Source: a virus
Taxonomy: Duplodnaviria > Caudoviricetes
IMG/VR virus record: IMGVR_UViG_3300031853_000031
Span: 4,579 to 68,578 of that record
DNA length: 64,000 nucleotides
Strand: one strand, 5' to 3'
Part shown: positions 33,780 through 48,152 of the stretch, one piece after another
Position numbering within the stretch: position 1 is the first letter of the stretch
Layout of the letters: each line of letters starts with the position of its first letter
Position numbers and translations under genes: made by a program
The notes under the pieces: generated by a model
Told to the model about the DNA's origin: nothing
Seen by the model: the letters and a program-made list of their open reading frames with translations, nothing else
Databases searched by the model: none

Positions 33780-33871
33780 CCTTTCGCAAAAAAAACAGAC
33801 GGTATAATAGAAGAGAAGGGAAGAAATATGCCATTTTTGATATTATTTTGGCATTTTCTTATATTTTTTCG

Positions 33872-34162: not shown

Positions 34163-34691
34163 AGGTTCTCATTCTTTTTTGGGTGCCTCTAAGTATCATT
34201 GGATACGATACGACGAGGATAAGTTCAGGAAAGCATGGAGTAACCATGAAGCAGCCTTACGAGGCACTGCTGATCACGAGTTTGCAGCCTTGTGTATTGC
34301 ACGTGGTCAGAAGTTACCTCGTAGTAAACAAACCCTTAACATGTACGTTAACGACGCAATAGGCTTTGGGCTTAAGCCCGAGGTCACGTTGCGGTATTCT
34401 GATAACGCCTTCGCGACAGCTGATGCTATTGATTTCAAAGAGCGTAAGAAGTTGTTGCAAATCTTTGATTTGAAGACTGGTGTCGTTCCGGCACATATGG
34501 AGCAGCTGCTTGTGTACGCTGCTTATTTTTGTTTGGAATACAAGATGCGTCCTTCTGAATTCAAAACAGAACTTCGTATCTATCAGAACAGTGACGTCGT
34601 AATTTATGAACCCGAAGTAGATGAGATTGTCCCCATAATGGACAAGATCATTCACTTTAACAAGATCATCGAAGAGAGGAAATACCAATGA
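34134..34691 (+). CDS. PD-(D/E)xK (Cas4/RecB-like) exonuclease
   Basis: RGTADH, ATADAI, IFDLKTG and EQLLVYA. Confidence 0.75.
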   Translation: MNFNEHFKLKGSHSFLGASKYHWIRYDEDKFRKAWSNHEAALRGTADHEFAALCIARGQKLPRSKQTLNMYVNDAIGFGLKPEVTLRYSDNAFATADAIDFKERKKLLQIFDLKTGVVPAHMEQLLVYAAYFCLEYKMRPSEFKTELRIYQNSDVVIYEPEVDEIVPIMDKIIHFNKIIEERKYQ

Positions 34692-37615
34692 GTATTATTA
34701 TATTCTCAGATGAGTTGATGCATTATGGTACTCCTCATTCGGGAGCAACCCCACACTCAGGACGCTATCCTTGGGGATCTGGTAAGAATCCACAAAGACA
34801 TAAAAGTATTCTTCAGAGAGCTGGCGAACTTAAAGAAGCTGGATTTACAGCTAGTGAGGTAAGAGCAGTTATGGGTACCACGGATAGCGAAATAGCTGCG
34901 GCTAAAGCTAGAGAGAACAAATGGGGTGATGCTGATGCTCTTCACGAACAGAACAAGGCAACGCTTGCTAAGATTAAGAAGCTTGAAGAAGAAGGTAAGA
35001 CATCGACACAGATTAAAGAAGAAACCGGGTTATCCAGTGGTGATGTTAGAGCTTTAAAGTCTGTCGTAAAGAAGCGTCAGCTTCAACTCGATGTTACAGA
35101 GGCTAGAAGACTTCGAGATGAGGAACACCTTGGGCCCACTGAAATTGCTCGACGTATGAACACTGGTGAGTCTACGATTCGTAACTATCTTAAAGACTCG
35201 TATAAAGAGAAAGTGGATCGTCAAGATGACATCATCAATGTTTTAAAGGCCGAGGTCGATAAAAAGAAATACATTGACGTTGGTAAAGGTGTTGAACTTC
35301 AGCTCAATATTACAAGGGATAAACTTGACAAAACTGTAAAAGAACTTAAACAGCAAGGGTATACTATACACCATTTATCCGTTCCACAAGCTACTAATCC
35401 TGTACACAAAACATCGATCCAGGTATTAACCAAAGATGATGTACCGTGGAAAGAAGTTAATGCTAATCGTGAAAAAGTAGCAACCATATTGGATGTGTAT
35501 TCGGATGGTGGTGAGATTAAGAAGAAAGCCCCACCCGTCAGTATTGACTCATCACGTATCATGATTCGATACAACGAAGATGGTGGTGTAGATAAGGACG
35601 GTGTGTTGGAGCTTAGGCCAAGCGCTAAAGACTTATCGATGGGTGGAAACCGGTATTCTCAAGTCCGAGTCGCAGTTGATGACACCCACTATCTTAAAGG
35701 CATGGCGATGTATGCTGATGAGAAGGACTTCCCACCAGGTATCGATATTATATTTAACACTAATAAGCATAGGGGCACACCTATGATCGGAGAAGATGCT
35801 GATCATGAAGTTCTTAAGCGATTGAAGACTGATAAAGTCACCGGTGATGTTGATGTCGATAATCCTTTCGGTGCTATTGTAAAACAAAAGACGTATGTTG
35901 GAGACGATGGAAAGGAACATCAGTCCCCCATCAACATCGTTAACGAAGATGAAGACTGGGAGAAGTGGTCAAAGAATCTTTCTGCACAGTTCTTATCTAA
36001 ACAATATTTAGCTACTGCTAAGAAACAATTAGACCTCACATATAGAGATAAAGTGAAAGAGTTTGAAGAGATTCAGGCTCTTACCAATCCCGTTCTCAAA
36101 GAAAAACTGATGCGGTCTTTTGCTGATGATTGCGATTCAGCAGCAGTTCATCTCAAGGCTAAGGCGTTTGATCGGCAAGCGAGTCATGTTATTCTTCCTA
36201 TGCCTTGGAATAAACCTAATGAGATCTATGCACCGAATTATGAACAGGGTGAGGAATTGGCTCTTGTACGATATCCACACGGTGGAACGTTCGAGATTGC
36301 TATCGTTACTGTTAACAATAACAATCCTAAAGCTAGAAGATTAATAGGTAACGCCGCACACGCTGTGGGTATTAATCCAGAAGTAGCACAACAGTTATCT
36401 GGTGCAGACTTTGATGGTGATACTGTAGTTTGTATTCCTACTAGAGGTAATAAGATTAAGGCAACGAAAGCTATTAAGGAGTTAATAGACTTCGAGCCTA
36501 AAGAAAAGTATCCTGCTTACGAAGGTATGCCTCGTGTCGGTCCTGATACTGGATTCCATAAACAGGCTGAGATGGGTCGAGTTACAAATCTTATCACGGA
36601 TATGACCATTAAGCACGCCACTACTGAAGAAATTATTAAAGCTACTAAACATTCCATGGTAGTAATAGACGCTGAAAAGCATAATCTCGATTGGAGGCGT
36701 AGCTATGAAGAGAATCAGATAGAGGCGTTGAAGCGTAAATATCAGAACACCGCTTCTAACGGACGTCCGGGTGGATCATCGACTATCATCTCTCGTGCAA
36801 AGTCCCCCTACATGGCTCCTGAAATAGACACCAACCGGCCCTATAAGATCAATCCTGAAACCGGGGAGAAGGAGTTCCAGTTTACAAACAAGACCCATAA
36901 CAAAAGAAATAAAGACGGGACCTATAGCGACAAAGAGATACCCAACACCTATAAATCCACCAAGATGTACTGGGCTAAGGACGCCTATGAACTAACGTCT
37001 GATGGGAAGGGTGGTACTAAGATGGAACAAGCCTATGCTGACTATGCTAATAGTCTTAAAGCATTAGGTGATAGGGCCAGACTGGAGTCGGTCCATATAG
37101 AGAGTATCCCCTATTCAAAAGAAGCCCGTCGTGTTTACAAAGCTGAAGTAGAATCGTTACAGGCTAAACTTAATGCTGCTATAGCCCACTCTCCTAAAGA
37201 ACGTAAGGCTCAACTTGTAGCGTCTAAAGTGATTGCTGCTAAAAAAGAGGCCAATCCAGACATGACTAAAGAAGAGGAGAAGAAGATGCGGTCTATAGCT
37301 ATAGCAGACGCACGTTCTCATCTTATAGGTACACAGAGTAAGCCTCGTATTACAGAGATTACAGATCGTGAATGGGAAGCAATTCAGTCTGGTGCTGTTA
37401 CTAAGTCCATGCTTAGAGAGATTATTGATAACTCTGATCAAGACATGATTAGACAAAGAGCAACACCAAGAACTAATAGTAAGACATTAACACCTGCACA
37501 GAGGGCTAGTATACACGCCATACTTACTAACCCCAACAACAAAGTAACACAAGCTGAATTAGCTAAACGTTACAATGTTTCAGTATCTACGATCAATAAG
37601 ATTGCTCGTGAATAA
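34688..37615 (+). CDS. Single-chain two-barrel RNA polymerase (YonO / RdRP-like) with HTHs and N-terminal HxG tag
   Basis: SGADFDGD at 36398-36421; LVRYP upstream; QVRV...YLKGM second-barrel motif; HTHs GPTEIARRMNTGESTIRNYL and TQAELAKRYNVSVSTINKI; starts SDELMHYG. Confidence 0.85.
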   Translation: MSIIIFSDELMHYGTPHSGATPHSGRYPWGSGKNPQRHKSILQRAGELKEAGFTASEVRAVMGTTDSEIAAAKARENKWGDADALHEQNKATLAKIKKLEEEGKTSTQIKEETGLSSGDVRALKSVVKKRQLQLDVTEARRLRDEEHLGPTEIARRMNTGESTIRNYLKDSYKEKVDRQDDIINVLKAEVDKKKYIDVGKGVELQLNITRDKLDKTVKELKQQGYTIHHLSVPQATNPVHKTSIQVLTKDDVPWKEVNANREKVATILDVYSDGGEIKKKAPPVSIDSSRIMIRYNEDGGVDKDGVLELRPSAKDLSMGGNRYSQVRVAVDDTHYLKGMAMYADEKDFPPGIDIIFNTNKHRGTPMIGEDADHEVLKRLKTDKVTGDVDVDNPFGAIVKQKTYVGDDGKEHQSPINIVNEDEDWEKWSKNLSAQFLSKQYLATAKKQLDLTYRDKVKEFEEIQALTNPVLKEKLMRSFADDCDSAAVHLKAKAFDRQASHVILPMPWNKPNEIYAPNYEQGEELALVRYPHGGTFEIAIVTVNNNNPKARRLIGNAAHAVGINPEVAQQLSGADFDGDTVVCIPTRGNKIKATKAIKELIDFEPKEKYPAYEGMPRVGPDTGFHKQAEMGRVTNLITDMTIKHATTEEIIKATKHSMVVIDAEKHNLDWRRSYEENQIEALKRKYQNTASNGRPGGSSTIISRAKSPYMAPEIDTNRPYKINPETGEKEFQFTNKTHNKRNKDGTYSDKEIPNTYKSTKMYWAKDAYELTSDGKGGTKMEQAYADYANSLKALGDRARLESVHIESIPYSKEARRVYKAEVESLQAKLNAAIAHSPKERKAQLVASKVIAAKKEANPDMTKEEEKKMRSIAIADARSHLIGTQSKPRITEITDREWEAIQSGAVTKSMLREIIDNSDQDMIRQRATPRTNSKTLTPAQRASIHAILTNPNNKVTQAELAKRYNVSVSTINKIARE

Positions 37616-37623
37616 AGAAAGGA

Positions 37624-37866
37624 ATGAAAGTAATGATTGCAATGTTATCAACTTCTGATAATCCTTTCAATCCTTTTACAAACTTTGAAGAATGGTACGA
37701 GTATGATGAGCGAAATAATTACCATTCCACTTCGTATTTAGGTCGAATTGCAAGACTTTCTCCGAATTTAACAAATAAAGAATACGAAGATGAAGTTGAA
37801 AGAGCGATTGATGAGATTATTAAGTACAATTTAACAGGAAATTACATTAAGGTGACACAGCCTTGA
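37624..37866 (+). CDS. Small acidic hypothetical protein next to the RNAP
   Basis: RBS GAAAGGA; MLSTSDNPFNPF... Confidence 0.65.
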   Translation: MKVMIAMLSTSDNPFNPFTNFEEWYEYDERNNYHSTSYLGRIARLSPNLTNKEYEDEVERAIDEIIKYNLTGNYIKVTQP

Positions 37867-37867
37867 T

Positions 37868-37950
37868 AGGGGGGAGGGGGTACCCCGAATCCCGCCCCCT
37901 CCCTGCATCGCGGCGTCCTTATATTTTTCTCCGGGGGTTAAAACCCCAAT
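37868..37950. other. Probable cos / genome-end region
   Basis: GC-rich island between the RNAP and terS/HNH; GGGAGGGGG/CCCCCTCCC inverted repeat, then GCATCG-CGGCGTCCT (37911-37919). Confidence 0.5.
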
Positions 37951-37957
37951 TATATTT

Positions 37958-38127
37958 TCAGAAACATTCCACCAGGGCATGGGGACTAACTAGTTAATTG
38001 CTATACATTGTTCGTTCGTTATAGGTTTTTCTTTGAGCTCTTTTCTAAAAATCGGTGTCGAAATTTGTGTCAAATGTCCTCCAAAAAGTGATTACAAAGT
38101 TCTCGTGCCTTGTTGGAATGTTTCTGA
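37958..38127 (+). ncRNA. Structured late-operon leader or ncRNA
   Basis: Perfect 14-bp inverted repeat TCAGAAACATTCCA/TGGAATGTTTCTGA, extended by about 15 bp with several G:U pairs. Confidence 0.45.
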
Positions 38128-38164
38128 CTTATATTCTATACCACACTAAACTAATCAAAAGGAG

Positions 38165-38500
38165 GTGACATGTGTGGGTAAACGTGCTGAGCGTCCTGCT
38201 ATGTCGCCGGAAGCAAAAGAGCAACAAATGATTGGACTCGCTATTGACTGCTGTGAGCAGCGTATGCGTGATGGAACAGCTTCTTCTGCAGAGATTTGCC
38301 ACTATCTCAAGCTTGGAACAACTAAAGCCAGACTTGAATTGGAAATCTTAGAGCACGAGAAACAGTTAGTCATCGCAAAGACCGAGTCCATTCGTAAAGC
38401 AGAAGAATCTTCCGCACTATACGCCGAGGTAATTAAGGCTATGAAGATCTACAAAGGCGAAGAGGACGAAGAGGAGGACTATGATGAGGACATATACTGA
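38165..38500 (+). CDS. Probable terminase small subunit
   Basis: First gene after the putative cos; helical; RBS AAGGAGG (start possibly GTG 38174). Confidence 0.55.
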   Translation: MTCVGKRAERPAMSPEAKEQQMIGLAIDCCEQRMRDGTASSAEICHYLKLGTTKARLELEILEHEKQLVIAKTESIRKAEESSALYAEVIKAMKIYKGEEDEEEDYDEDIY

Positions 38501-38900
38501 ACTTATCACCCTTCCGACCTTTGAAGAACGCTTTAACTACCTGAAACTTGACAACAAGGTCGCCGAACAGACCTTTGGAGCAGAAAGATATTTGAACCAG
38601 AAGTTCTATCGGTCTCCCGAATGGCGAAGACTCCGCGACCAGATAATAGTAAGAGATCTGGGCTGTGATATGGGTTTGCCCGGTTACGAAATCCATGGAA
38701 AGATCATCATCCACCATATGAATCCTATAACGATGGAAGACATCTACCATGCTTCGAACGCTCTGATGAATCCTGAGTTCTTAGTTTGTGTAAAACACGC
38801 TACCCACAACGCCATCCACTATGGTGACGATACGATTCTCAGAACAAACGTCGTAACAGAACGCAAACCCAACGATACCTGCCCTTGGAGGAAGTCATGA
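38481..38900 (+). CDS. HNH endonuclease (cos-packaging associated)
   Basis: RDLGCDMG...IHHMNP...LVCVKHATHNAIH. Confidence 0.85.
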   Translation: MMRTYTELITLPTFEERFNYLKLDNKVAEQTFGAERYLNQKFYRSPEWRRLRDQIIVRDLGCDMGLPGYEIHGKIIIHHMNPITMEDIYHASNALMNPEFLVCVKHATHNAIHYGDDTILRTNVVTERKPNDTCPWRKS

Positions 38901-39724
38901 GAACACAATACCAAGACTTTCTAGTCCATCATGGACGTCTAGGACAAAAATGGGGTGTGAAAAACGGTCCTCCCTATCCGCTCCAACTAAAGGGTAAGTC
39001 CTACGGTTCAGTAATGAAGAAAAAGCTTACCCGGAAACAGACAAAAGAGTTAAAGAAAGAGTTTTCACGACAATCTGAGAAGGATAAAGAAGAAACTAAG
39101 AATGAAAAACGAGAGCTTCATTCGGCTGGTATACACAAAGGCATCTTTAATGACTACCTCGAAAAAGACAAATCCCTTTATCGCTATAGTAGTACGGATA
39201 AGGAGTCTTTGGACAATCGGCGTAAATACGTCAGTGTTACAGAAACGGACAGAAGAGTCTATAAGAACGACGCTGAAGCGAATGCCCTGTCTAACAAGGG
39301 AAAAGACGTATATTTGTACGAATACACTTCCAAGGAACGAATTAAGATTGCCAGAGCTGAGAAGTTTATCAAGGATGCGATCCGAGAATATGGCGACGAC
39401 GATGTAAAAGAAGCTTGGAAACAGACGAAAATAGCTAATGTCCGCAAACATTATCACAAGCTTAATAGCGAGTTAAAAGATCCGTCAAACAATAAAAGAT
39501 GGATGTTTGATCATGCTGCGGATAATCAGGAAAAGGTATCTAAGTTTCTTCATGATGTCTTATACGACCCCGAAAAGTCTAAGAAGTTCTACGATAAGTA
39601 TTACAAGAAAGGTTATCGTGCGATTGTCGATCCTGAAGACTATTCTTCTGGATATTACTATCCACTGATAGTTCTAAATCCAAAAGAAAGCATGGTAACC
39701 AAGAAAGTTAAAAGGGTGAGATAA
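38897..39724 (+). CDS. HHG-tagged protein A with ADP-ribosyltransferase-like domain
   Basis: FLVHHGRLGQKWGVKNGPPYPL; LYRYS, KYVSVT and KGYRAIVDPED...PLIVLNP resemble ART strands. Confidence 0.6.
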   Translation: MRTQYQDFLVHHGRLGQKWGVKNGPPYPLQLKGKSYGSVMKKKLTRKQTKELKKEFSRQSEKDKEETKNEKRELHSAGIHKGIFNDYLEKDKSLYRYSSTDKESLDNRRKYVSVTETDRRVYKNDAEANALSNKGKDVYLYEYTSKERIKIARAEKFIKDAIREYGDDDVKEAWKQTKIANVRKHYHKLNSELKDPSNNKRWMFDHAADNQEKVSKFLHDVLYDPEKSKKFYDKYYKKGYRAIVDPEDYSSGYYYPLIVLNPKESMVTKKVKRVR

Positions 39725-39725
39725 G

Positions 39726-40088
39726 ATGAACGACTCAATTCTAACTTCTATAAAGAAACTCCTAGGAATCCCAGCTGATTACACTCACTTCGACGAAGAC
39801 ATCCTAACCCAGATCAACATGGCTTTCTCTACGCTTAAGCAATTAGGCGTTGGACCAGAGGATGGCTTTACTGTCGAAGACAAAAACGACTTCTGGGACG
39901 ACTATATGGACGAAGGTCCAACTCTCAACATGGTGAAAACCTATATTCAGCTCAAAGTTCGTCAGACATTCGACCCGCCAACCATTTCAGCAGTCTTAAC
40001 CTCTCTTGAGAGCCAGATAGCTGAGCTTGAGTGGAGGCTCTTAGTCGAATGTGATCCTGATTCCACGAATGAGGGCGAAGAGGAATAG
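39726..40088 (+). CDS. Head-tail connector (gp6/gp15-like)
   Basis: SILTSIKKLLG...FDEDIL..IN...LKVR..FDPP...ELEWRL. Confidence 0.7.
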   Translation: MNDSILTSIKKLLGIPADYTHFDEDILTQINMAFSTLKQLGVGPEDGFTVEDKNDFWDDYMDEGPTLNMVKTYIQLKVRQTFDPPTISAVLTSLESQIAELEWRLLVECDPDSTNEGEEE

Positions 40089-40092
40089 CAAA

Positions 40093-41064
40093 ATGAAAGC
40101 GTTTACTAAATACCAAGACTTCTTAGTCCATCATGGACGTCCTGGACAGCGATGGGGTGTGAAGAATGGTCCTCCCTATCCTCTCGGTGCTTCTAACCAG
40201 AAGTATAAGAAGATGATGAAAGATCGGAAAGGGACAGTTCACGAGCCGTTTTCCGAAGCTGACATTTCCAAGGCTGAATGGAATAAGTTCAAGAAAATGC
40301 TTGCTGAAGAAGAGTCTCGTGAAAACATTAGCCTAATGGAGGCGGATGCCAGGGCAAAATTAGAGAAGAAAAATACGAAAAAGGCGTTGACTGCGTCGGC
40401 AGTACTAACTCCTATTTTTCCTCTTTTGTTGATAACCGACATATCAAACGCAAAGCTGCTTGCCGACAATCGTTCCGCTGAAAAACTTGAAAAAGCCCTT
40501 CTTAAGCAAATCGAATCTAACACCCGTGTTGACCCGAAAACTGGTTTTAGGCTAAAACAAAAAGAGATGACCATACCACAGGATGTTGCTATGATCAACC
40601 CCGGTTTTAAGACCTTTAACGATTCGTATAAGCATAACTGTACTTTCTGTACTACTGCTTATGATATGCGTCGTAGAGGTTATGACGTTATGGCCAACAA
40701 GACTCCGAATGATCAGATGACAGGACAATTCTTCCAGTGGTATCCTAAATCTAAGATGGTATCCATTACTAGATCGTCCAATTCTAACGGTGATTATCTG
40801 AAAGAAATCCAAGATGAAATCACCAAACAGGGTAATGGTGCCAGAGGTAACTTTTCTGTTCAGTGGAAGGGTGGAGCTGGCGGACATTCGATGGCTTATG
40901 AGGTTGTTGGAGATAAGTTCGTGGTTATCGACGCTCAGTCTAATAAGATCTACAAGGATAAGGACCTATCGAGGATCATCGAACACACCGACTATGCGAC
41001 CTATATCAGATTAGATAACGTAGACATCAATCCAAAAATGATAAAGAAGGCGGTGAGACCATGA
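40093..41064 (+). CDS. HHG-tagged protein B with papain-fold toxin (Tox-PL / Gln deamidase-like) domain
   Basis: FLVHHGRPGQRWGVKNGPPYPL; HNCTFCTTAYDMRRRGYDV (Cys), GGHSMAY (His), VIDAQS (Asp); ATG at 40093. Confidence 0.8.
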   Translation: MKAFTKYQDFLVHHGRPGQRWGVKNGPPYPLGASNQKYKKMMKDRKGTVHEPFSEADISKAEWNKFKKMLAEEESRENISLMEADARAKLEKKNTKKALTASAVLTPIFPLLLITDISNAKLLADNRSAEKLEKALLKQIESNTRVDPKTGFRLKQKEMTIPQDVAMINPGFKTFNDSYKHNCTFCTTAYDMRRRGYDVMANKTPNDQMTGQFFQWYPKSKMVSITRSSNSNGDYLKEIQDEITKQGNGARGNFSVQWKGGAGGHSMAYEVVGDKFVVIDAQSNKIYKDKDLSRIIEHTDYATYIRLDNVDINPKMIKKAVRP

Positions 41065-41315
41065 CACCAAAAGAAGCAGTAGCATCTGTGAAAAAAGTTC
41101 ATCCGAACCATGTGCCGACACAGGTGCTCGATTACGATAATGATTATTACATTGTCGAGGCTTTACCGAAAGGCGTTGACAAGAGTTCTGACGACCCTTA
41201 CTATGCTGTAGAAAAGAAAACCGGTAAAGTCTACTTCTATCATCCAGGTGGCGATTTCATCAAATTCTTTGATGCATTAGATAATAGAGCCATCAAAATA
41301 GGAGATGTAAAATGA
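41061..41315 (+). CDS. Putative immunity protein (Imm35/YrhB-like)
   Basis: 84 aa; ATGA overlap with the toxin gene; MTPKEAVASV...PYYAVEKKTGKV pattern. Confidence 0.55.
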   Translation: MTPKEAVASVKKVHPNHVPTQVLDYDNDYYIVEALPKGVDKSSDDPYYAVEKKTGKVYFYHPGGDFIKFFDALDNRAIKIGDVK

Positions 41316-43012
41316 GAACACAATACCAAGACTTTCTAGTCCATCATGGACGTCTAGGACAAAAATGGGGTGTGAAAAACGGTCCTCCCTATCCGCTCCA
41401 GCTTAAAGGCAGATCTTACGGCTCTATCATGAAGAAAAAGAAGAAGCTTCCTGAGGCGGAGGTTGCTACAAAGAAGGAAGGATCGTCAGATAGGGCGAGT
41501 CAGAATCAGAGTCGGGCAGCTTCAGATGTTTATAAAAAATGGGATAACGACACATTACTGTCTACTCGCAAAGAAGTAAAAGATGTCCATGACGAATTAA
41601 ACAAGATCCCAAAGAAACATCGTACAGAAGCTCAGCAACGTCAGTATGAAGATACCAAACAGAAACTTAGTTTGTTAGATAAAGAACTCAATAGGCGTTC
41701 TTCCAAAGACTTCGATGCAAGTGCTTCTAATAATCCGTCTCTTAGAGCCAATCTCGACACGATCGAGCAGATGATTCGACAGCATATGATCAATGAAACT
41801 AATCGTTCAATAGACCTTAACAATCAGACGGTTAATAATGTTGTTACACAGCAAATGATGTTTGGTAAAGGCCAAAAACAAGGCTCCATCGCAGACAGGG
41901 CAAAATCTTTTCTTAAGAACTACAACTCCCCAGAAGCCAAAGCTGCTCGTGAAGCCCGTCGTCATGAGGAAAATCTTAAGATGATGGAGAATATGAGAGC
42001 TCATGATGAGCGTGCTGCTCAGAAACAGAAAACGAAAGACTTAAAGGCTGAGCGTGAAGAACATCAGAGAAGACTTAAGGAGATCGAAGCCGAGCTTAAG
42101 AAGGACAAAGAAGAACGTAGTCACGAGAAAGCCATGAAGATGCTTGAGAAGTATCAGAAGAAAAATGGTAGTGATGTCGAGGATACCTCGGGCTCTGAAG
42201 AGCGTGGCTCTATCACCGATAGAGAGGGTAGTTCAAGGGATTGGTCTAAAACTGAAAAAGCTATCGAAAAACAATCTAGCAAAAGTCTTAGGAATAGTTT
42301 TCAGGAGGCCCAATTCTGGAAAGAAGATCTTAGAGATAGACTCACAGAAACCAAGGACCCCAAAGAGAGAGCCGAGATTCAGAAGAGTATTAACGAAATA
42401 GACAAACGGCGTCAGTTAATACAAAAAGAGTTAGACAGTCGTAGGAAGAACGGCGATGCTGATACGCTCACTCAAACGCAAGGCTCTCTTAGGGAAAAAG
42501 CTAAGCAGGCTATCGAGAAGTACAATTCTCCAGAAGAGAAAACCAAGCGTGCAGCGGCTAGAGCCGAACGTGAGAGAGTTAGAGCAGAGAAAGCTGTGGA
42601 GAAAGCGATAAAAAGGTCTGAACGTAGTGAGGCCAGAGCTGAGCGTAAGCGTGAACGGGCGGAAGCTAAAGCCGAAGCCGCCAGGGAAGCTGCAGCGGCT
42701 GAAAGAAAGAAGTTTCTTGATAATGCCACTCCTGAACAGATTCTTAAACGTCATGATGAGTTCACTACAAAAGAAGTAGACGATGCCATTGTGCGTATCA
42801 GGCAGCGGCAGACATTGCAGTCTCTTAGCGAAACTGAGAAATCTCAGACCGAACGCTTTATTAAGAATACTTTTAATAAAGTCAACACTGTTGAAAAGTT
42901 TGTATCGACTTCTATCAAGCTTTACGATGACTATGAGGACTTCATGAATATTCTCAACAAGAGACCTCGTCGTAAAGATCAGAAGAAAAATGACGATAAA
43001 AAGAAAGAATAA
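41312..43012 (+). CDS. HHG-tagged protein C, highly charged coiled coil
   Basis: Same tag; E/K/R/A-rich; no catalytic motif recognised. Confidence 0.8.
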   Translation: MRTQYQDFLVHHGRLGQKWGVKNGPPYPLQLKGRSYGSIMKKKKKLPEAEVATKKEGSSDRASQNQSRAASDVYKKWDNDTLLSTRKEVKDVHDELNKIPKKHRTEAQQRQYEDTKQKLSLLDKELNRRSSKDFDASASNNPSLRANLDTIEQMIRQHMINETNRSIDLNNQTVNNVVTQQMMFGKGQKQGSIADRAKSFLKNYNSPEAKAAREARRHEENLKMMENMRAHDERAAQKQKTKDLKAEREEHQRRLKEIEAELKKDKEERSHEKAMKMLEKYQKKNGSDVEDTSGSEERGSITDREGSSRDWSKTEKAIEKQSSKSLRNSFQEAQFWKEDLRDRLTETKDPKERAEIQKSINEIDKRRQLIQKELDSRRKNGDADTLTQTQGSLREKAKQAIEKYNSPEEKTKRAAARAERERVRAEKAVEKAIKRSERSEARAERKRERAEAKAEAAREAAAAERKKFLDNATPEQILKRHDEFTTKEVDDAIVRIRQRQTLQSLSETEKSQTERFIKNTFNKVNTVEKFVSTSIKLYDDYEDFMNILNKRPRRKDQKKNDDKKKE

Positions 43013-43025
43013 GGAGTGACTCTAT

Positions 43026-44759
43026 ATGGCATTATCTAACACTGCCACTCCTTACTACTATGGTCAATTTCGTGATGCGGTAATGAGAGGTGAGATACCT
43101 GTCTGTGAGACTATTGTTATGCAGATGAATCTCATCGACAAGTTAATAGAAGATGCTAGATACTACTATGACGATCGGGCTGTCGAAGGTTGGATTAAGT
43201 TCTGTGAAGCCGAGCTTACTCTGACTGATGGTTCCGATCTTTTCTTATTACCGACATTCAAACTCTGGGCTGAGGACGTCTATGGTTGGTACCACTTTAT
43301 AGAAGAAGACGTCTGGAACAGAGCACAACGACGCTTTATCAAGAAACAGGTAAAGCATCGTCTAAGAAACAAGCAATACTTGATAGTTGCCAGAGGAGCG
43401 GCTAAGACTGTATATGGTGAATGTCATCAGGCTTATGGTCTGACGGTAGACACTACTACAACTCATCAGATTACCACGGCTCCAACCATGAAACAAGCAG
43501 AAGAAATACTATCTCCTTTCAGAACTGCTATAACCAGGGCTCGTGGGCCGCTCTTCCGGTTTCTTACAGAAGGATCTCTCCAGAACACCACTGGCAACAA
43601 AGCACTTAGACAAAAACTTGCATCCACAAAGAAGGGCGTTGAGAACTTCTTAACGAATTCTCTCCTTGAAGTACGACCTATGTCTATCAACAAGCTTCAG
43701 GGGTTACAGAACAAGTATTCCACTGTCGATGAGTGGTTGTCTGGTGACATCAGAGAGGACGTTATAGGTGCCCTAGAGCAGGGCGCATCTAAGGTGGATG
43801 ACTGGCTCATCATTGCTATGAGTTCAGAGGGAACAGTCCGTAATGGAGCTGGCGATACCATCAAAATGGAGCTTATGGACATCCTTAAAGGTAAGTATGA
43901 AGCTCCTAACGTGTCTATCTGGTGGTACAAACTCGACAACCTTGAAGAAGTAAACATGCCTGAGATGTGGTTGAAAGCCAATCCTAATCTTGGTGCGACC
44001 GTATCTTACGAGACTTACGAGATTGAGAAGCAGAGAGCTGAGAACGCACCTGCCGCTCGTAATGACATCCTTGCTAAAAGATTCGGTATCCCTATGGAGG
44101 GGTATACTTACTTCTTTACTTACGAGGAAACCTTCTGTCACGAGAAGAGGGACTACTGGCAGATGGAATGTGCTATGGGTGCTGACCTTTCTCAGGGTGA
44201 TGACTTCTGTGCATTCACTTTCCTATTCCCTCTTGGCGATGGTTCCTTCGGCATTAAGACCAGGTCCTACATCACTTCTTTAACTCTTCACAAACTTCCA
44301 GCTGCTATGAGAATTAAGTACGACGAGTTCATGAAAGAAGGTTCTCTCATTGTTCTTGAGGGTACGGTTCTTAACATGATGGAAGTCTATGAAGACTTGG
44401 ATGAGTTTATTACAGCTAACGAGTATGATGTCAACTGCTTCGGTTACGACCCGTACAACGCAAAAGCTTTTGTGGAGAGATGGGAACTGGAGCATGGACC
44501 TTTTGGTACTGTGAAAGTCATTCAAGGTGCCAGAACAGAATCAGTCCCCCTTGGCGAACTTAAGAAACTCGCCGAAGAGAGACTACTCTTGTTTGATGAG
44601 GAACTTATGTCCTTTACGATGGGGAACTGTATCACCCTTGAAGATACTAATGGTAACCGGAAACTGCTTAAAAAGCGCTATGAGCATAAGATTGATAATG
44701 TCGCAGCTCTAATGGATGCTTTCATAGCTTATAAGGAAAATCTGGATATGTTTGATTAG
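43026..44759 (+). CDS. Terminase large subunit
   Basis: VARGAAKT (Walker A), TVDEW (Walker B), GADLSQGDDF (RNase H-like nuclease), KIDNVAALMDA. Confidence 0.95.
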   Translation: MALSNTATPYYYGQFRDAVMRGEIPVCETIVMQMNLIDKLIEDARYYYDDRAVEGWIKFCEAELTLTDGSDLFLLPTFKLWAEDVYGWYHFIEEDVWNRAQRRFIKKQVKHRLRNKQYLIVARGAAKTVYGECHQAYGLTVDTTTTHQITTAPTMKQAEEILSPFRTAITRARGPLFRFLTEGSLQNTTGNKALRQKLASTKKGVENFLTNSLLEVRPMSINKLQGLQNKYSTVDEWLSGDIREDVIGALEQGASKVDDWLIIAMSSEGTVRNGAGDTIKMELMDILKGKYEAPNVSIWWYKLDNLEEVNMPEMWLKANPNLGATVSYETYEIEKQRAENAPAARNDILAKRFGIPMEGYTYFFTYEETFCHEKRDYWQMECAMGADLSQGDDFCAFTFLFPLGDGSFGIKTRSYITSLTLHKLPAAMRIKYDEFMKEGSLIVLEGTVLNMMEVYEDLDEFITANEYDVNCFGYDPYNAKAFVERWELEHGPFGTVKVIQGARTESVPLGELKKLAEERLLLFDEELMSFTMGNCITLEDTNGNRKLLKKRYEHKIDNVAALMDAFIAYKENLDMFD

Positions 44760-44932
44760 TCTTCTCTTTCAATCCAATTACCAATGACACGCTTACCATC
44801 TAGGTAGGTCCATTCGCCATCCTCTTCGTCCTCGTTGTAAAAGGTGGCTTCGGCTTCTTCATAGGTGTCATAAACTTGGGTGCTACGATATTCAGACTCA
44901 TCTTCTGTTACAGAATAAACCCTATATCCCAT
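44756..44932 (-). CDS. 58-aa acidic antisense moron protein (not in ORF track)
   Basis: MGYRVYSVTEDESEYRSTQVYDTYEEAEATFYNEDEEDGEWTYLDGKRVIGNWIERED; RBS GGAGG; upstream TTGCTT-16 bp-TATACT with TG extension on the minus strand. Confidence 0.75.
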   Translation of the reverse strand: MGYRVYSVTEDESEYRSTQVYDTYEEAEATFYNEDEEDGEWTYLDGKRVIGNWIERED

Positions 44933-45004
44933 AGTACTTCTACCTCCGTTTAAGTGCTATTTATTGCTACTAATAACAGTATACCAGAAAGTGAGGATTA
45001 AGCA

Positions 45005-46282
45005 ATGCCTAGTTTTGGATCCAGGCTACAACATGCTTGGAATGCTTTCTTCAACAAAGACCCCACACCGCAAGCCCGGGTTGAGTATGGCTACTCGTCA
45101 TATCACAGACCCGACAGATATCAGATGTCACCAAGTAACAAGCGGTCTATCGTGTCAGCGATTTACAATCGTATAGCCGTAGACGCTTCCATGGTGGCAA
45201 TCGAACATGTAGATACAGATCCGGATCAAAATCATCGCTTTGTAGGAGTACGTAAGTCTGCTCTTAACGACTTGCTTACTGTCAGAGCAAATATCGACCA
45301 GACTGGCAAGGACTTTATTAGAGACATTATTATCTCTATGTTTGACGAAGGCTGTATTGCTTTGGTTATCACTCAGGCTACAGATGACCCACGACTTACT
45401 AACATCTACGACATTGGTTCTGCCAGAGTTGCAAAGATTGTCCAGTGGTATCCGGAACATGTAAAAGTACAAGTATACAACGAAAGAACCGGCCATCGAG
45501 AAGAACGTATCTATCCCAAGGAATGTACCGCCATTATCGAGAACCCGTTCTTTCTAATCATGAACGAGCCTAACTCAGTTCTCCAGCAGCTTATCAGGAA
45601 GATGAACTTGCTGGATTATGTGGAGTCAAGGGCTAATTATGGGAAGTTGGATTTGATTATTCAGCTTCCTTATTTAGTTAAGACGCCTAAGAAACAGGCT
45701 CAGGCTGAACGACGTCGTAAAGACATCGAACAACAGTTATCCAGTTCCGATTACGGAATTGCATATACAGATGGTACGGAGAGAATCACTCAGCTTAACC
45801 GTCCTGTCGAAAACAAGATTTGGGAAGAAGTGAAAGACTTAACGAGCATGTTATACAACCAGTTAGGAATGCACCAATCCATCTTTGACGGCACGGCGAA
45901 CGAGCAGACGATGATTAACTACTATAACCGAACCATCGACCCCGTGTTAGCCGCTATTGCTGATGCTATCAACATGAAGTGGCTGACCAAAACTGCACGT
46001 ACGCAAGGGCAGACCATCCGGTATTACAGGAGTCCCTTTAGGCTTACACCTGCTAAGGAGATTGCTAACATCGGAGGAGCTCTCATACAAAGCGAGGTCG
46101 TATCGTCCAACGAAGTGCGTGCTGAGCTTGGTTACGTACCGTCTGATGATCCTAGAGCTGATCAGCTTCTTAACAAGAACATCAACACGGTTGACCAATC
46201 TACGCAGGCGGCAGAGAATCCTCCGTCTGTGGAGGACTCTGTAAAAGTAAAAGGAGGAACAGATCAAAATGGCGAAACCTGA
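45005..46282 (+). CDS. Portal protein (HK97-like)
   Basis: After TerL; SIVSAIYNRIAVD, IFDGTANE, NEVRAELG motifs. Confidence 0.9.
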   Translation: MPSFGSRLQHAWNAFFNKDPTPQARVEYGYSSYHRPDRYQMSPSNKRSIVSAIYNRIAVDASMVAIEHVDTDPDQNHRFVGVRKSALNDLLTVRANIDQTGKDFIRDIIISMFDEGCIALVITQATDDPRLTNIYDIGSARVAKIVQWYPEHVKVQVYNERTGHREERIYPKECTAIIENPFFLIMNEPNSVLQQLIRKMNLLDYVESRANYGKLDLIIQLPYLVKTPKKQAQAERRRKDIEQQLSSSDYGIAYTDGTERITQLNRPVENKIWEEVKDLTSMLYNQLGMHQSIFDGTANEQTMINYYNRTIDPVLAAIADAINMKWLTKTARTQGQTIRYYRSPFRLTPAKEIANIGGALIQSEVVSSNEVRAELGYVPSDDPRADQLLNKNINTVDQSTQAAENPPSVEDSVKVKGGTDQNGET

Positions 46283-48152
46283 ATTACAGTGTGATTTCTC
46301 CGGCTGGGTTACGAAAAACGACGTTAAATGTGCAGACGGACGAGTCATCAAACATGGAGCCTTCGCTGACAATGAGGGTGAAACTGTCCCGTTAATGTGG
46401 GGACACAATCACTCCGACCCTTCTAATGTTCTGGGAAAGATGCTTCTTAGAAACTTAGATGAGGGGACATACGGCTATGGCTTCCTTAATCATAGTGCCA
46501 AAGCTGATGAGGCAAGAGAGCTTCTTAAGCATGGCGATATTACCAGAATGTCTATATGGGCAGGGGAACTTGTTCATCAGGACTGTAACGTTGTTCATGG
46601 CCGAATTAAAGAAGTAAGCCTTGTCGTTGGTGCCGCTAATCCCGGAGCCAGGATTGAAAATGTCTATCTGGCTCACAGCGATGGTGAAGGTGAAGTATTA
46701 GACGATGAAGCTGTAATCTTCTTTGATGATGGCATTGATTTCTTCCACTCTGACGAACCTGAAGAAGGTAAAAAAGAGGAAAAGAAGGAAGAGAAGGAAG
46801 AAGGGAAAGAAGAAGGCGAAATGGATCCGGAAAAGATCTATAAAACTTTAAACGACGATCAGAAGAGATTGTTCACTTTTGTAGTAAATGAAGCCCTCGA
46901 ATCCGGCAAAGCCGACGAGGAAGAAAAAGAAGTTAAACATTCGGAAGGAGAAACTGAAATGAAATACAATACTTTTGATACTGGTGCAGAGCAGGCTAGA
47001 GGTAACTTCATCTCTCACGCTGACCAGGAAATGATTATGGAAATGGCTAAGGACCGTGGTGTAGGTTCTTTCCAGAACGCATTTAAGATTTATGCCGAGC
47101 AGAACGAACTGATGCATTCCGACGCAGCTGACGCTGTAGGTGGTTTTACTACATCACCAACAGAGAACCATTTCGGACTTGAAGCTGTATTCCCGGAATA
47201 CAAGGAAGTATCCGGCAGCAAGACCCCGGAGTTAATCACTTCTGATCAGGGCTGGATCACAACAGTCATGAACAAGGTTCATAAGAGCCCCATCTCCAGA
47301 ATCAGAACCAGCCATCTCGACATTCGTGGACTGGACGAGCTTCGTGCAAAGGGTTATCAGAAGGGCCGGAAGAAATCCCTGTCTGGCAACTTCGAGTTTG
47401 CTCGTAGAACAACCGATCCTCAGACTATCTATGTTCGTAACTCCCTGCACAGGGATGATATCATCGATATCACAGACTTTGACTATGTAAACTACCTCTT
47501 TAACATCGACAAGATGATGCTGAACGAAGAGCTGGCTACAGCTATCATGATTGGTGATGGCCGTGCTCAATCGTCCGATGACAAGATCTTCGAGACACAT
47601 ATCAGATCTATCTGGCATGATGACGACCTGTACACCATACATGTAGATCTTGATACTACAGATCCCGAGATTCAGGGCAGCGAGACTGAAGGATACTTCG
47701 GTGAGAACTACATCATGGCTGAATCCATGATCCAGACCGTTCTCTATGCACGTGAGAACTTCAAAGGCACAGGTACTCCTGATATGTTCATTACTCCTCA
47801 TATGCTCAACGTAATGCTTCTGTCCAGAGACCGCAACGGCCGTAGAATCTTCTCCAGCAAGAACGAACTGGCTGCAGCTCTTAACGTTGGTGCTATCCAT
47901 ACAGCCGAACAGTTTGCTGACAAGACTCGTACCGCTACTATCAACGGAACCGAGAAGACCAAGAAGCTCATCGCTATCATCTGCAACCTGGCTGACTACT
48001 CTCTGGGTCATACAAAGGGTGGCGAAGTAACACACTTTACACAGTTTGATATCGACTTCAACCAGCAGAAGAGCCTGCTTGAGACCAGATGCTCCGGTGC
48101 TCTTACAAAGCTGTGGTCTGCTATCGCTATCGAGGAGGATGTAACTGCCTAA
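46269..48152 (+). CDS. Fused prohead protease (HK97-type S78) / scaffold / major capsid protein
   Basis: VPLMWGH (His), RMSIW (Ser), EVSLV...ANPGARI; acidic linker; capsid-like C-terminus FDIDFNQQK.L.ETRCSGAL. Confidence 0.9.
   Translation: MAKPELQCDFSGWVTKNDVKCADGRVIKHGAFADNEGETVPLMWGHNHSDPSNVLGKMLLRNLDEGTYGYGFLNHSAKADEARELLKHGDITRMSIWAGELVHQDCNVVHGRIKEVSLVVGAANPGARIENVYLAHSDGEGEVLDDEAVIFFDDGIDFFHSDEPEEGKKEEKKEEKEEGKEEGEMDPEKIYKTLNDDQKRLFTFVVNEALESGKADEEEKEVKHSEGETEMKYNTFDTGAEQARGNFISHADQEMIMEMAKDRGVGSFQNAFKIYAEQNELMHSDAADAVGGFTTSPTENHFGLEAVFPEYKEVSGSKTPELITSDQGWITTVMNKVHKSPISRIRTSHLDIRGLDELRAKGYQKGRKKSLSGNFEFARRTTDPQTIYVRNSLHRDDIIDITDFDYVNYLFNIDKMMLNEELATAIMIGDGRAQSSDDKIFETHIRSIWHDDDLYTIHVDLDTTDPEIQGSETEGYFGENYIMAESMIQTVLYARENFKGTGTPDMFITPHMLNVMLLSRDRNGRRIFSSKNELAAALNVGAIHTAEQFADKTRTATINGTEKTKKLIAIICNLADYSLGHTKGGEVTHFTQFDIDFNQQKSLLETRCSGALTKLWSAIAIEEDVTA

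Follow-up and report, generated by a model that had tools for sequence, protein, structure and literature searches.

Why should an RNA polymerase and three proteins of a phage head module begin with the same short peptide, and why should that peptide resemble sites inside the precursor of the major capsid protein? The question is raised by a stretch of 64 kb (the window), taken out of a 68.6-kb IMG/VR virus record (IMGVR_UViG_3300031853_000031) that bears direct terminal repeats; the phage is an uncultured siphovirus and a member of a large Gram-positive siphovirus lineage. The peptide consists of a leader with an L-x-H motif and an adaptor behind it, and proteins of the head module that carry both are called tagged proteins 1 to 3. 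The answer preferred here, with modest confidence, is that the head probably takes in all four proteins and its protease probably trims them, leader and adaptor marking them as cargo that would be injected with the DNA.

The shared leader in the window

Four proteins of the window, the two-barrel polymerase and the three head-module proteins, carry L-x-H-[H/Y]-G...WG at the start of their translations. When all six frames were scanned for [LIVMF]-x-H-[HYF]-G...WG, exactly four matches were returned, each at most 13 residues from a start codon (about 0.06 expected by chance, on a rough estimate). In the open reading frames (ORFs) at 38897, 40093 and 41312, Q-D-F-L-V-H-H-G is followed each time by R-x-G-Q-x-W-G-V-K-N-G-P-P-Y-P-L, and the core of this tag is, as judged by profile matches, the Pfam domain DUF7211 (PF23847), a domain of unknown function whose invariant columns H, G, G, W and G are all present in the window tags. 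The tag of tagged protein 1 was predicted to be disordered by itself in an AlphaFold2 (AF2) model, as expected of a peptide that binds a partner. In the polymerase the leader is joined to a different module, which ends W-G-S-G (S-G-R-Y-P-W-G-S-G) and also heads small head-module proteins in four related loci (L023, L054, L068 and L075). An earlier note on this DNA had quoted the leader strings of all four proteins and had remarked that ELMH is common to the polymerase leader and the last motif of the capsid spacer; both observations were confirmed in the translations. Its claim that one tag is common to the four proteins held for the leader, but not for the DUF7211 core, which the polymerase lacks.

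The three head-module tags form a 129-nt direct DNA repeat, D1 (38897-39025, 40099-40227 and 41312-41440), copies 2 and 3 of which are 91% and 64% identical to the first. Such a repeat, and the low information content of L-x-H, would fit an origin of the shared N-termini by gene duplication or recombination in the head module, with the likeness to the spacer motifs a coincidence. This was considered highly improbable in view of the constancy of H, G, G, W and G across two host phyla and all the clusters described below, the remainder of the proteins being unrelated, and of the motif context shared by 96% of spacer His residues. The 129-nt repeat could also drive cassette exchange among the cargo genes.

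The tag in other phages

A tag profile of 36 columns was searched against 1.84 billion representatives (E<=1e-3) and matched 50,647 protein clusters at 50% identity. The best matches were polyproteins of up to 1,569 aa, each bearing 2-5 tags. Two multi-tag chains are encoded between terminase and portal, one followed by the fusion gene and the other on a contig that ends at the portal, and they are thus fused versions of the gene arrays seen in other genomes. The residue before [HYFW]-G-x-x-G-x-x-W-G was His in 377/378 tags (Gln in the exception), with Leu at -2 in 359/378, and the His, Gly, Gly, Trp and Gly of the tag are conserved across Firmicute and actinobacterial phages. A spacer-type His site, typically hydrophobic-K-H-S-D, lies 4-30 residues (mostly 10-14) upstream of 172 of the 250 internal tags, and in another 20 that conserved position is occupied by Gln. 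Alternation of His and Gln at a fixed site amid conserved residues points to a protease P1 position rather than a metal ligand.

Loci related to the window were collected from IMG/VR (80 loci, terminase ~75% identical; the loci of phages ReqiPoco6 and LibertyBell are labelled L088 and L089). The 80 loci hold 190 tagged ORFs, the C-terminal parts of which fall into 29 unrelated clusters, and 19 of 25 representative tagged proteins of related loci match DUF7211 (best E 2.6e-12). The C-terminal parts include a glutamine deamidase; GenBank records of others name an acetyltransferase domain, a protease and an RNA ligase. The tag is supported as a conserved modular element that heads very diverse C-terminal parts across phages of two bacterial phyla. 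The open-access literature was searched for DUF7211 and for typical tag strings, and neither was found mentioned in a phage context.

In every locus examined, the tagged genes have terminase, portal and capsid genes around them. Rhodococcus phage ReqiPoco6 shows the tag at the start of six successive genes that separate terminase from portal. Three genes are tagged in Streptomyces phage LibertyBell, and the annotation of one names an acetyltransferase domain. GenBank lists two proteins of Lactococcus phage 1706 as structural: ORF7, which has two tags, and ORF75, the polymerase homologue, which carries the same leader; the 'structural' label of ReqiPoco6 gp106 rests on similarity to 1706.

Three further observations were made on tagged or leader-bearing proteins of these loci. 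In ReqiPoco6 gp015 (L088:412-2028), the seventh tagged protein of that phage, a 2H-phosphoesterase-like domain (two H-x-T motifs) stands ahead of a spacer-type His site and an internal tag, so that an untagged enzyme unit is fused to the front of a tagged one. An actinophage gene between portal and fusion protein (ReqiPoco6 gp025, L088:9642-10292; LibertyBell gp11, L089:6901-7431) opens with [LI]-I-H-E-Y-D-P; this is a third type of hydrophobic-x-His leader at an N-terminus, and the window and the gut loci showed no counterpart of it. Most small tagged proteins carry a second motif, M/F-S/T-x-x-E-L-x-x-R-x-x-R-L-x-x-E, which frequently precedes a hydrophobic segment of membrane-like character (L062:9575-9988, L024:5517-6038, window 42730-42850 and L088:412-2028); a nearly universal copy lies just upstream of the terminase, and the protein bearing it may be an ejection or membrane-channel protein.

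The protease-capsid fusion and its spacer His sites

The fusion protein (46269-48152, 627 aa) consists of a protease domain, an acidic spacer and a capsid domain; the earlier note had called it a protease-capsid polyprotein with a linker. In PHROG and Foldseek searches the protease was placed with the assemblin fold and the capsid domain with the HK97 fold. The matching family, phrog_3270, is annotated 'head maturation protease', and the fold matched that of the protease of Kaposi's sarcoma-associated herpesvirus, a herpesvirus assemblin (Foldseek, probability 1.0, E 1e-3). Across relatives, H46, H48 and S95 are invariant and H110 is nearly so; the domain has an assemblin-like or HK97 (S78) fold with conserved Ser and His residues, which are presumably catalytic. 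An AF2 model of the fusion protein built on 51 sequences was of low overall confidence (predicted local distance difference test, pLDDT, 56), with a confident N-domain (10-132), a disordered acidic spacer containing helices at 187-211 and 250-278, and a partly confident C-domain. The latter matched phage capsids, a gene transfer agent and encapsulins in Foldseek at E 7e-3 to 0.1 from a low-confidence model; PF05065 is carried by relatives, and the predicted fold of the C-terminal domain is the HK97 fold. No solved structure came up in sequence searches with the fusion protein, its profile, the polymerase or the tag.

The spacer contains His residues at 136, 160, 224, 250, 283 and 301, and the first five sit in hydrophobic-x-His-small motifs, namely LAHSD, FFHSD, VKHSE, ISHAD and ELMHSD, the five strings that had been picked out before. 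All five sites were predicted to lie in disordered stretches or at helix edges between the assemblin-fold and HK97-fold domains. In 58 related fusion proteins, L, I, V or M precedes the spacer His at -2 in 297/308 cases (96%), with G, S, N, A or D at +1 in addition in 292/308; for His residues of other ORFs, 27% have L, I, V or M at -2 and 10% have the small residue at +1 too. The five sites can be aligned among relatives of 33-59% identity, phage 1706 and actinophages included, and the last aligned site directly precedes the start of the capsid domain. The spacer of phage 1706 ORF10 has seven His sites. A cut after P1 in a hydrophobic-x-P1 context is the grammar of T4 gp21, and was counted in favour of cleavage at the spacer sites.

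The RNA polymerase

By family profile and by the D-x-D-G-D loop, the 34688..37615 product is assigned as a two-barrel (YonO-like) RNA polymerase: the match to phrog_4291 covers residues 79-973 and the catalytic-loop motif D-F-D-G-D is present. Helix-turn-helix (HTH) domains lie at the N- and C-terminus, with a Sigma70_r4 match at the C-terminus. Phage 1706 ORF75 is 34% identical over the full length, with the leaders aligned. The 1706-type enzyme has been grouped with YonO-like proteins (PMC2919709), and its D-x-D-G-D motif has been noted (bioRxiv 10.1101/842583).

A promoter-like element, CGCAA-5 nt-ACA-5 nt-TATAAT with fixed spacing, occurs in 18 plus-strand copies from 6717 to 33834 (e.g. 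6717, 9742, 13890, 19912, 22583 and 33785). It is dense at 6.7-13.9 kb, its last copy lies just upstream of the polymerase operon, and none was found in 34-64 kb of the window. The element may be a promoter class for the phage polymerase, or for host sigma-A with a phage factor. A promoter and terminator scan of 33.5-48.5 kb gave counts at chance level.

The position of an element of this early-region class at 33785, just ahead of the polymerase operon, would suit a polymerase made after infection to transcribe later genes, in the manner of YonO in SPbeta. Separately, the tagged proteins might not be head cargo as a class; the tag might be an in-cell degron or timing device for the phage protease, or belong to an assembly, membrane or lysis module. 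Many tagged proteins are indeed small and basic with a hydrophobic segment, and YonO is described as a non-virion late-gene polymerase (PMC5467207). The structural annotation of 1706 ORF7 and ORF75, and the place of the tagged genes beside those for terminase, portal and capsid, argue the other way, and these readings together were judged improbable.

Candidate cargo in the head module

The C-domain of tagged protein 1 (275 aa) is folded in its AF2 model (pLDDT 73 overall, ~85 in the C-domain). Its top Foldseek matches were MbcT and pertussis S1 at E of at least 0.013, and the Atlas leads were ART-PolyVal (0.88-0.89). These hints are weak but mutually consistent, and an ADP-ribosyltransferase (ART)/RES-type toxin using nicotinamide adenine dinucleotide was kept as a weak, model-based lead. 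The same Foldseek list also holds a pre-ejectosome chain of cyanophage A4 (9k3a_B, E 0.056), a weak match. Two relatives of tagged protein 1 (L008:2689-3711 and L066:11762-13048) have x-K-H-S-D or x-E-H-S-D near the stop or ahead of a short tail, and such a spacer-type site near the end hints at C-terminal trimming too.

Tagged protein 2 bears a glutamine deamidase toxin domain behind its tag, and the stop of its gene is overlapped by an 84-aa ORF, which gave no family match in Pfam and PHROG scans and is a candidate immunity or partner gene. The earlier note had likened these proteins to MuF proteins with variable toxin domains; the toxin domain was found, but no MuF domain was detected in Pfam scans of the three tagged proteins and 22 other tagged representatives. 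Tagged protein 3 stands directly upstream of the terminase, as ORF7 does in phage 1706. It was considered as an orthologue of ORF7 and rejected, no significant similarity being found outside the tag, so that the tie between the two is positional only.

Proposed mechanism and points against it

The capsid protein is made as a fusion in which an acidic scaffold-like spacer joins a protease of assemblin fold to a capsid domain of HK97 fold. In the mechanism proposed, the fused protease would cut out the spacer at hydrophobic-x-His-small sites once the shell is assembled. An acidic-Leu-x-His leader opens the accessory proteins of the head genes and the polymerase, followed by one of two adaptors (the DUF7211 core or the polymerase type), and leader and adaptor would bring the cargo into the assembling prohead, docking most simply on the protease or spacer part carried by every capsid subunit. 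The protease would then process the cargo at His sites and, in the polyproteins of relatives, separate the fused units; the polymerase, the ART/RES-like protein, the glutamine deamidase and the long basic protein would leave with the DNA at infection. From the comparisons above we infer loading by the tag, cleavage after His, a scissile bond at the tag and injection; the presence of a tagged protein and of a polymerase homologue in virions is given by the annotation of phage 1706 only. The interpretation that the earlier note had placed on the locus is partly supported, by the conserved modular tag, the diverse C-terminal parts, the conserved spacer His sites and the structural annotations in phage 1706, and not in the MuF domain.

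Several findings weigh against this mechanism. The residue after the tag His is H, Y, F or W and then Gly, where the spacer sites have a small residue; with so bulky an aromatic, the tag His may be a binding residue rather than the scissile site, and the position of a cut at the tag is uncertain. The most conserved part of the tag follows the His, so that the core would be retained after maturation, while the targeting peptide of T4 is removed. The three window tags score 15.8-19 bits against DUF7211, under the 27-bit Pfam cut-off. The tag profile aligned to the polymerase over 8 positions only, at 8.3 bits; a Pfam scan of the polymerase gave no DUF7211 match, and homology of its N-terminus to DUF7211 was rejected, the match being confined to the leader. 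Finally, among 50,697 phage records, the polymerase query matched 250 (Arthrobacter 95, Gordonia 55, Streptomyces 54, Lactococcus 13 and others), the fusion-protein query 246 and a 45-aa tag query 233, in the same genera. Tag, polymerase and fusion protein thus occur in the same ~250 genomes of actinophages, Lactococcus 1706-like phages and Faecalibacterium phages; they are co-inherited in one lineage, their co-occurrence cannot separate function from descent, and an independent covariation test of tag against protease type is impossible because all three share the same records.

The first two of these findings could also mean that the tag is a virion-incorporation or binding module left uncut at its own His, the protease cutting spacer-type sites only; Leu-x-His would then be part of the binding surface, for example as a non-cleavable substrate mimic in the protease groove. 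The spacer-type site 10-14 residues upstream of most internal tags fits such a module, since cutting there alone would give units that start like single-tag proteins. Many single-tag proteins, on the other side, have just five or six residues before the His, few for a structural element and more like a minimal site, and the acidic residues and Leu before the tag His resemble the spacer sites. On balance an uncut module was thought unlikely. A more specific form of the cargo mechanism, in which the capsid-fused protease domain itself is the receptor, leader and adaptor docking in its groove as a substrate or mimic and a His/Gln-specific cut freeing the cargo, is put forward as a tentative and rather doubtful possibility.

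Comparison with known systems

The T4 internal proteins IPI-III and Alt carry an N-terminal capsid-targeting sequence (CTS) that is cut by gp21 at I/L-x-E (PMC9026906, PMC12991175), and by analogy the CTS is the closest known counterpart of the tag. Both are short N-terminal leaders on unrelated proteins that vary between relatives, with head packing and injection known in T4 and proposed here. Both leaders end in hydrophobic-x-P1, the same grammar as at the scaffold or capsid precursor sites: Leu at -2 and His at 0 are common to tags and spacer sites, with an aromatic residue at +1 in tags and a small one in spacer sites. Cargo in both includes basic proteins and an enzyme of ADP-ribosyltransferase type (here ART-like and weak), and both proteases have the assemblin fold. 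The proposed P1 residue differs, being His (rarely Gln) and not Glu; a conserved adaptor of 20-30 residues after the site would remain on the cargo, cargo units can be chained as polyproteins, and the protease is fused to the capsid protein with no separate scaffold core. The phages also differ, being siphoviruses of Gram-positive hosts, in which the proposed system is known from sequence.

The HK97 protease gp4 enters the prohead by way of its C-terminal tail, and herpesvirus assemblin cuts at V/L-x-A↓S. The window protease shares with these the fold, the Ser/His/His-type residues, hydrophobic-x-P1-small sites and (as proposed) the removal of a scaffold-like segment from an HK97-fold shell protein. 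It differs in being covalently fused upstream of the capsid protein, in the proposed P1 His and in that the same site is proposed to mark cargo.

In the giant phages phiKZ and SPN3US, ejection proteins bearing propeptides are cut by the prohead protease (PMC5694885, PMC10052503). There, too, many ejected proteins reside in the head, subunits of a virion RNA polymerase included, and are processed at a shared short motif; the giant phages differ as myoviruses with multisubunit virion polymerases, Glu at P1 and long propeptides without a DUF7211-like adaptor. Virion RNA polymerases are also known from N4, from crAss-like phages and, fused to a tape measure, from P23-45 (bioRxiv 10.1101/2022.12.01.518664). 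Like these and YonO, some of which are delivered with the DNA, the window enzyme is a phage two-barrel or single-chain polymerase; it differs in its size (~1,000 aa), its built-in HTH domains and its leader of head-cargo type, a virion location being given by the 1706 annotation only.

The constant head-associated N-terminal part and swappable C-terminal toxin domains (here a glutamine deamidase) recall MuF toxins, in which the constant part is a folded domain and not a peptide-sized tag; no MuF domain, as stated, was found in the Pfam scans. MuF-associated polymorphic toxins of temperate phages were reportedly described by Jamet et al. in 2017.

Lineage and other features of the window

The coordinates of the features are collected in table 1. 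All long ORFs of the window lie on the plus strand, and the gene order is polymerase, HNH endonuclease, tagged protein 1, connector, tagged protein 2, 84-aa ORF, tagged protein 3, terminase, portal and protease-capsid fusion. The connector corresponds to ORF6 of phage 1706, a protein annotated as structural. The N-terminus of the portal (45005-45050, and portals of L008-L087) has hydrophobic-x-H-A-W-N-A-F nine residues from the start, kept in most relatives; as an additional substrate it was dropped and no claim is made for it, because the His is replaced by Asn in several relatives.

No near-identical phage genome was found, DNA-level matches being confined to the terminase and to actinophages. 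The terminase DNA (43372-44736) is 70-73% identical to terminases of Arthrobacter, Gordonia and Rhodococcus phages; the phage itself has 42% G+C. The supercluster of actinophages together with the Lactococcus 1706 and Faecalibacterium group has already been described, the polymerase motifs being noted there and the tag not (bioRxiv 10.1101/842583).

Table 1. Positions of the leader-bearing proteins, the protease-capsid fusion and neighbouring genes in the window.
Feature	Position	Strand	Evidence or remark
Single-chain two-barrel (YonO-like) RNA polymerase, 975 aa	34688..37615	+	phrog_4291 E=0
Leader and polymerase-type adaptor, polymerase residues 7-34	34706..34789	+	leader at residues 7-14
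HNH endonuclease, start of head module	38481..38900	+	phrog_4321 E=1.4e-63
Tagged protein 1, 275 aa from ATG	38897..39724	+	tag, then folded domain, weakly ART/RES-like
Head-tail connector protein	39726..40088	+	PF24829 E=7e-36; phrog_4247
Tagged protein 2, tag and papain-fold glutamine deamidase toxin domain	40093..41064	+	PF15644 27.3 bits (cut-off 24.1)
84-aa ORF, overlaps stop of tagged protein 2	41061..41315	+	ORF list
Tagged protein 3, 566 aa, tag and long basic coiled-coil-like region	41312..43012	+	directly upstream of terminase
Terminase large subunit	43026..44759	+	PF20441 E=8e-31; phrog_9 E=7e-101
Portal protein	45005..46282	+	PF04860 E=5e-19
Protease domain of fusion, residues 1-132, assemblin/HK97-protease fold	46269..46664	+	PF04586 (Peptidase_S78) 20.5 bits (cut-off 21); phrog_3270 E=8e-193
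Acidic spacer of fusion, residues 133-283, five hydrophobic-x-His-small sites, two helices	46665..47117	+	scaffold- or delta-domain-like
HK97-fold major capsid protein domain of fusion (predicted), residues 284-627	47118..48152	+	Foldseek

Significance

The idea is directly testable on cultured members of the lineage, among them Lactococcus phage 1706 and many SEA-PHAGES actinophages. If loading and trimming by the tag are as proposed, a very large domain so far without a function, with 50,647 clusters (at 50% identity), would be given one, and assemblin-fold prohead proteases would have gained a new specificity, with His at P1. A catalogue of injected effectors would follow (deamidase, ART-like, acetyltransferase and RNA-ligase-like), probably acting on host defence or physiology, and a short tag would be at hand with which foreign proteins could be packaged into phages that infect Gram-positive bacteria. 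Were the protease also the receptor, tens of thousands of Gram-positive phages would have a programmable peptide delivery code in common. For the lineage itself, the proposal would mean a T4-like protein-delivery code in an abundant group of gut, dairy and soil siphoviruses, and it would account for how a YonO-like polymerase might act as soon as infection begins.

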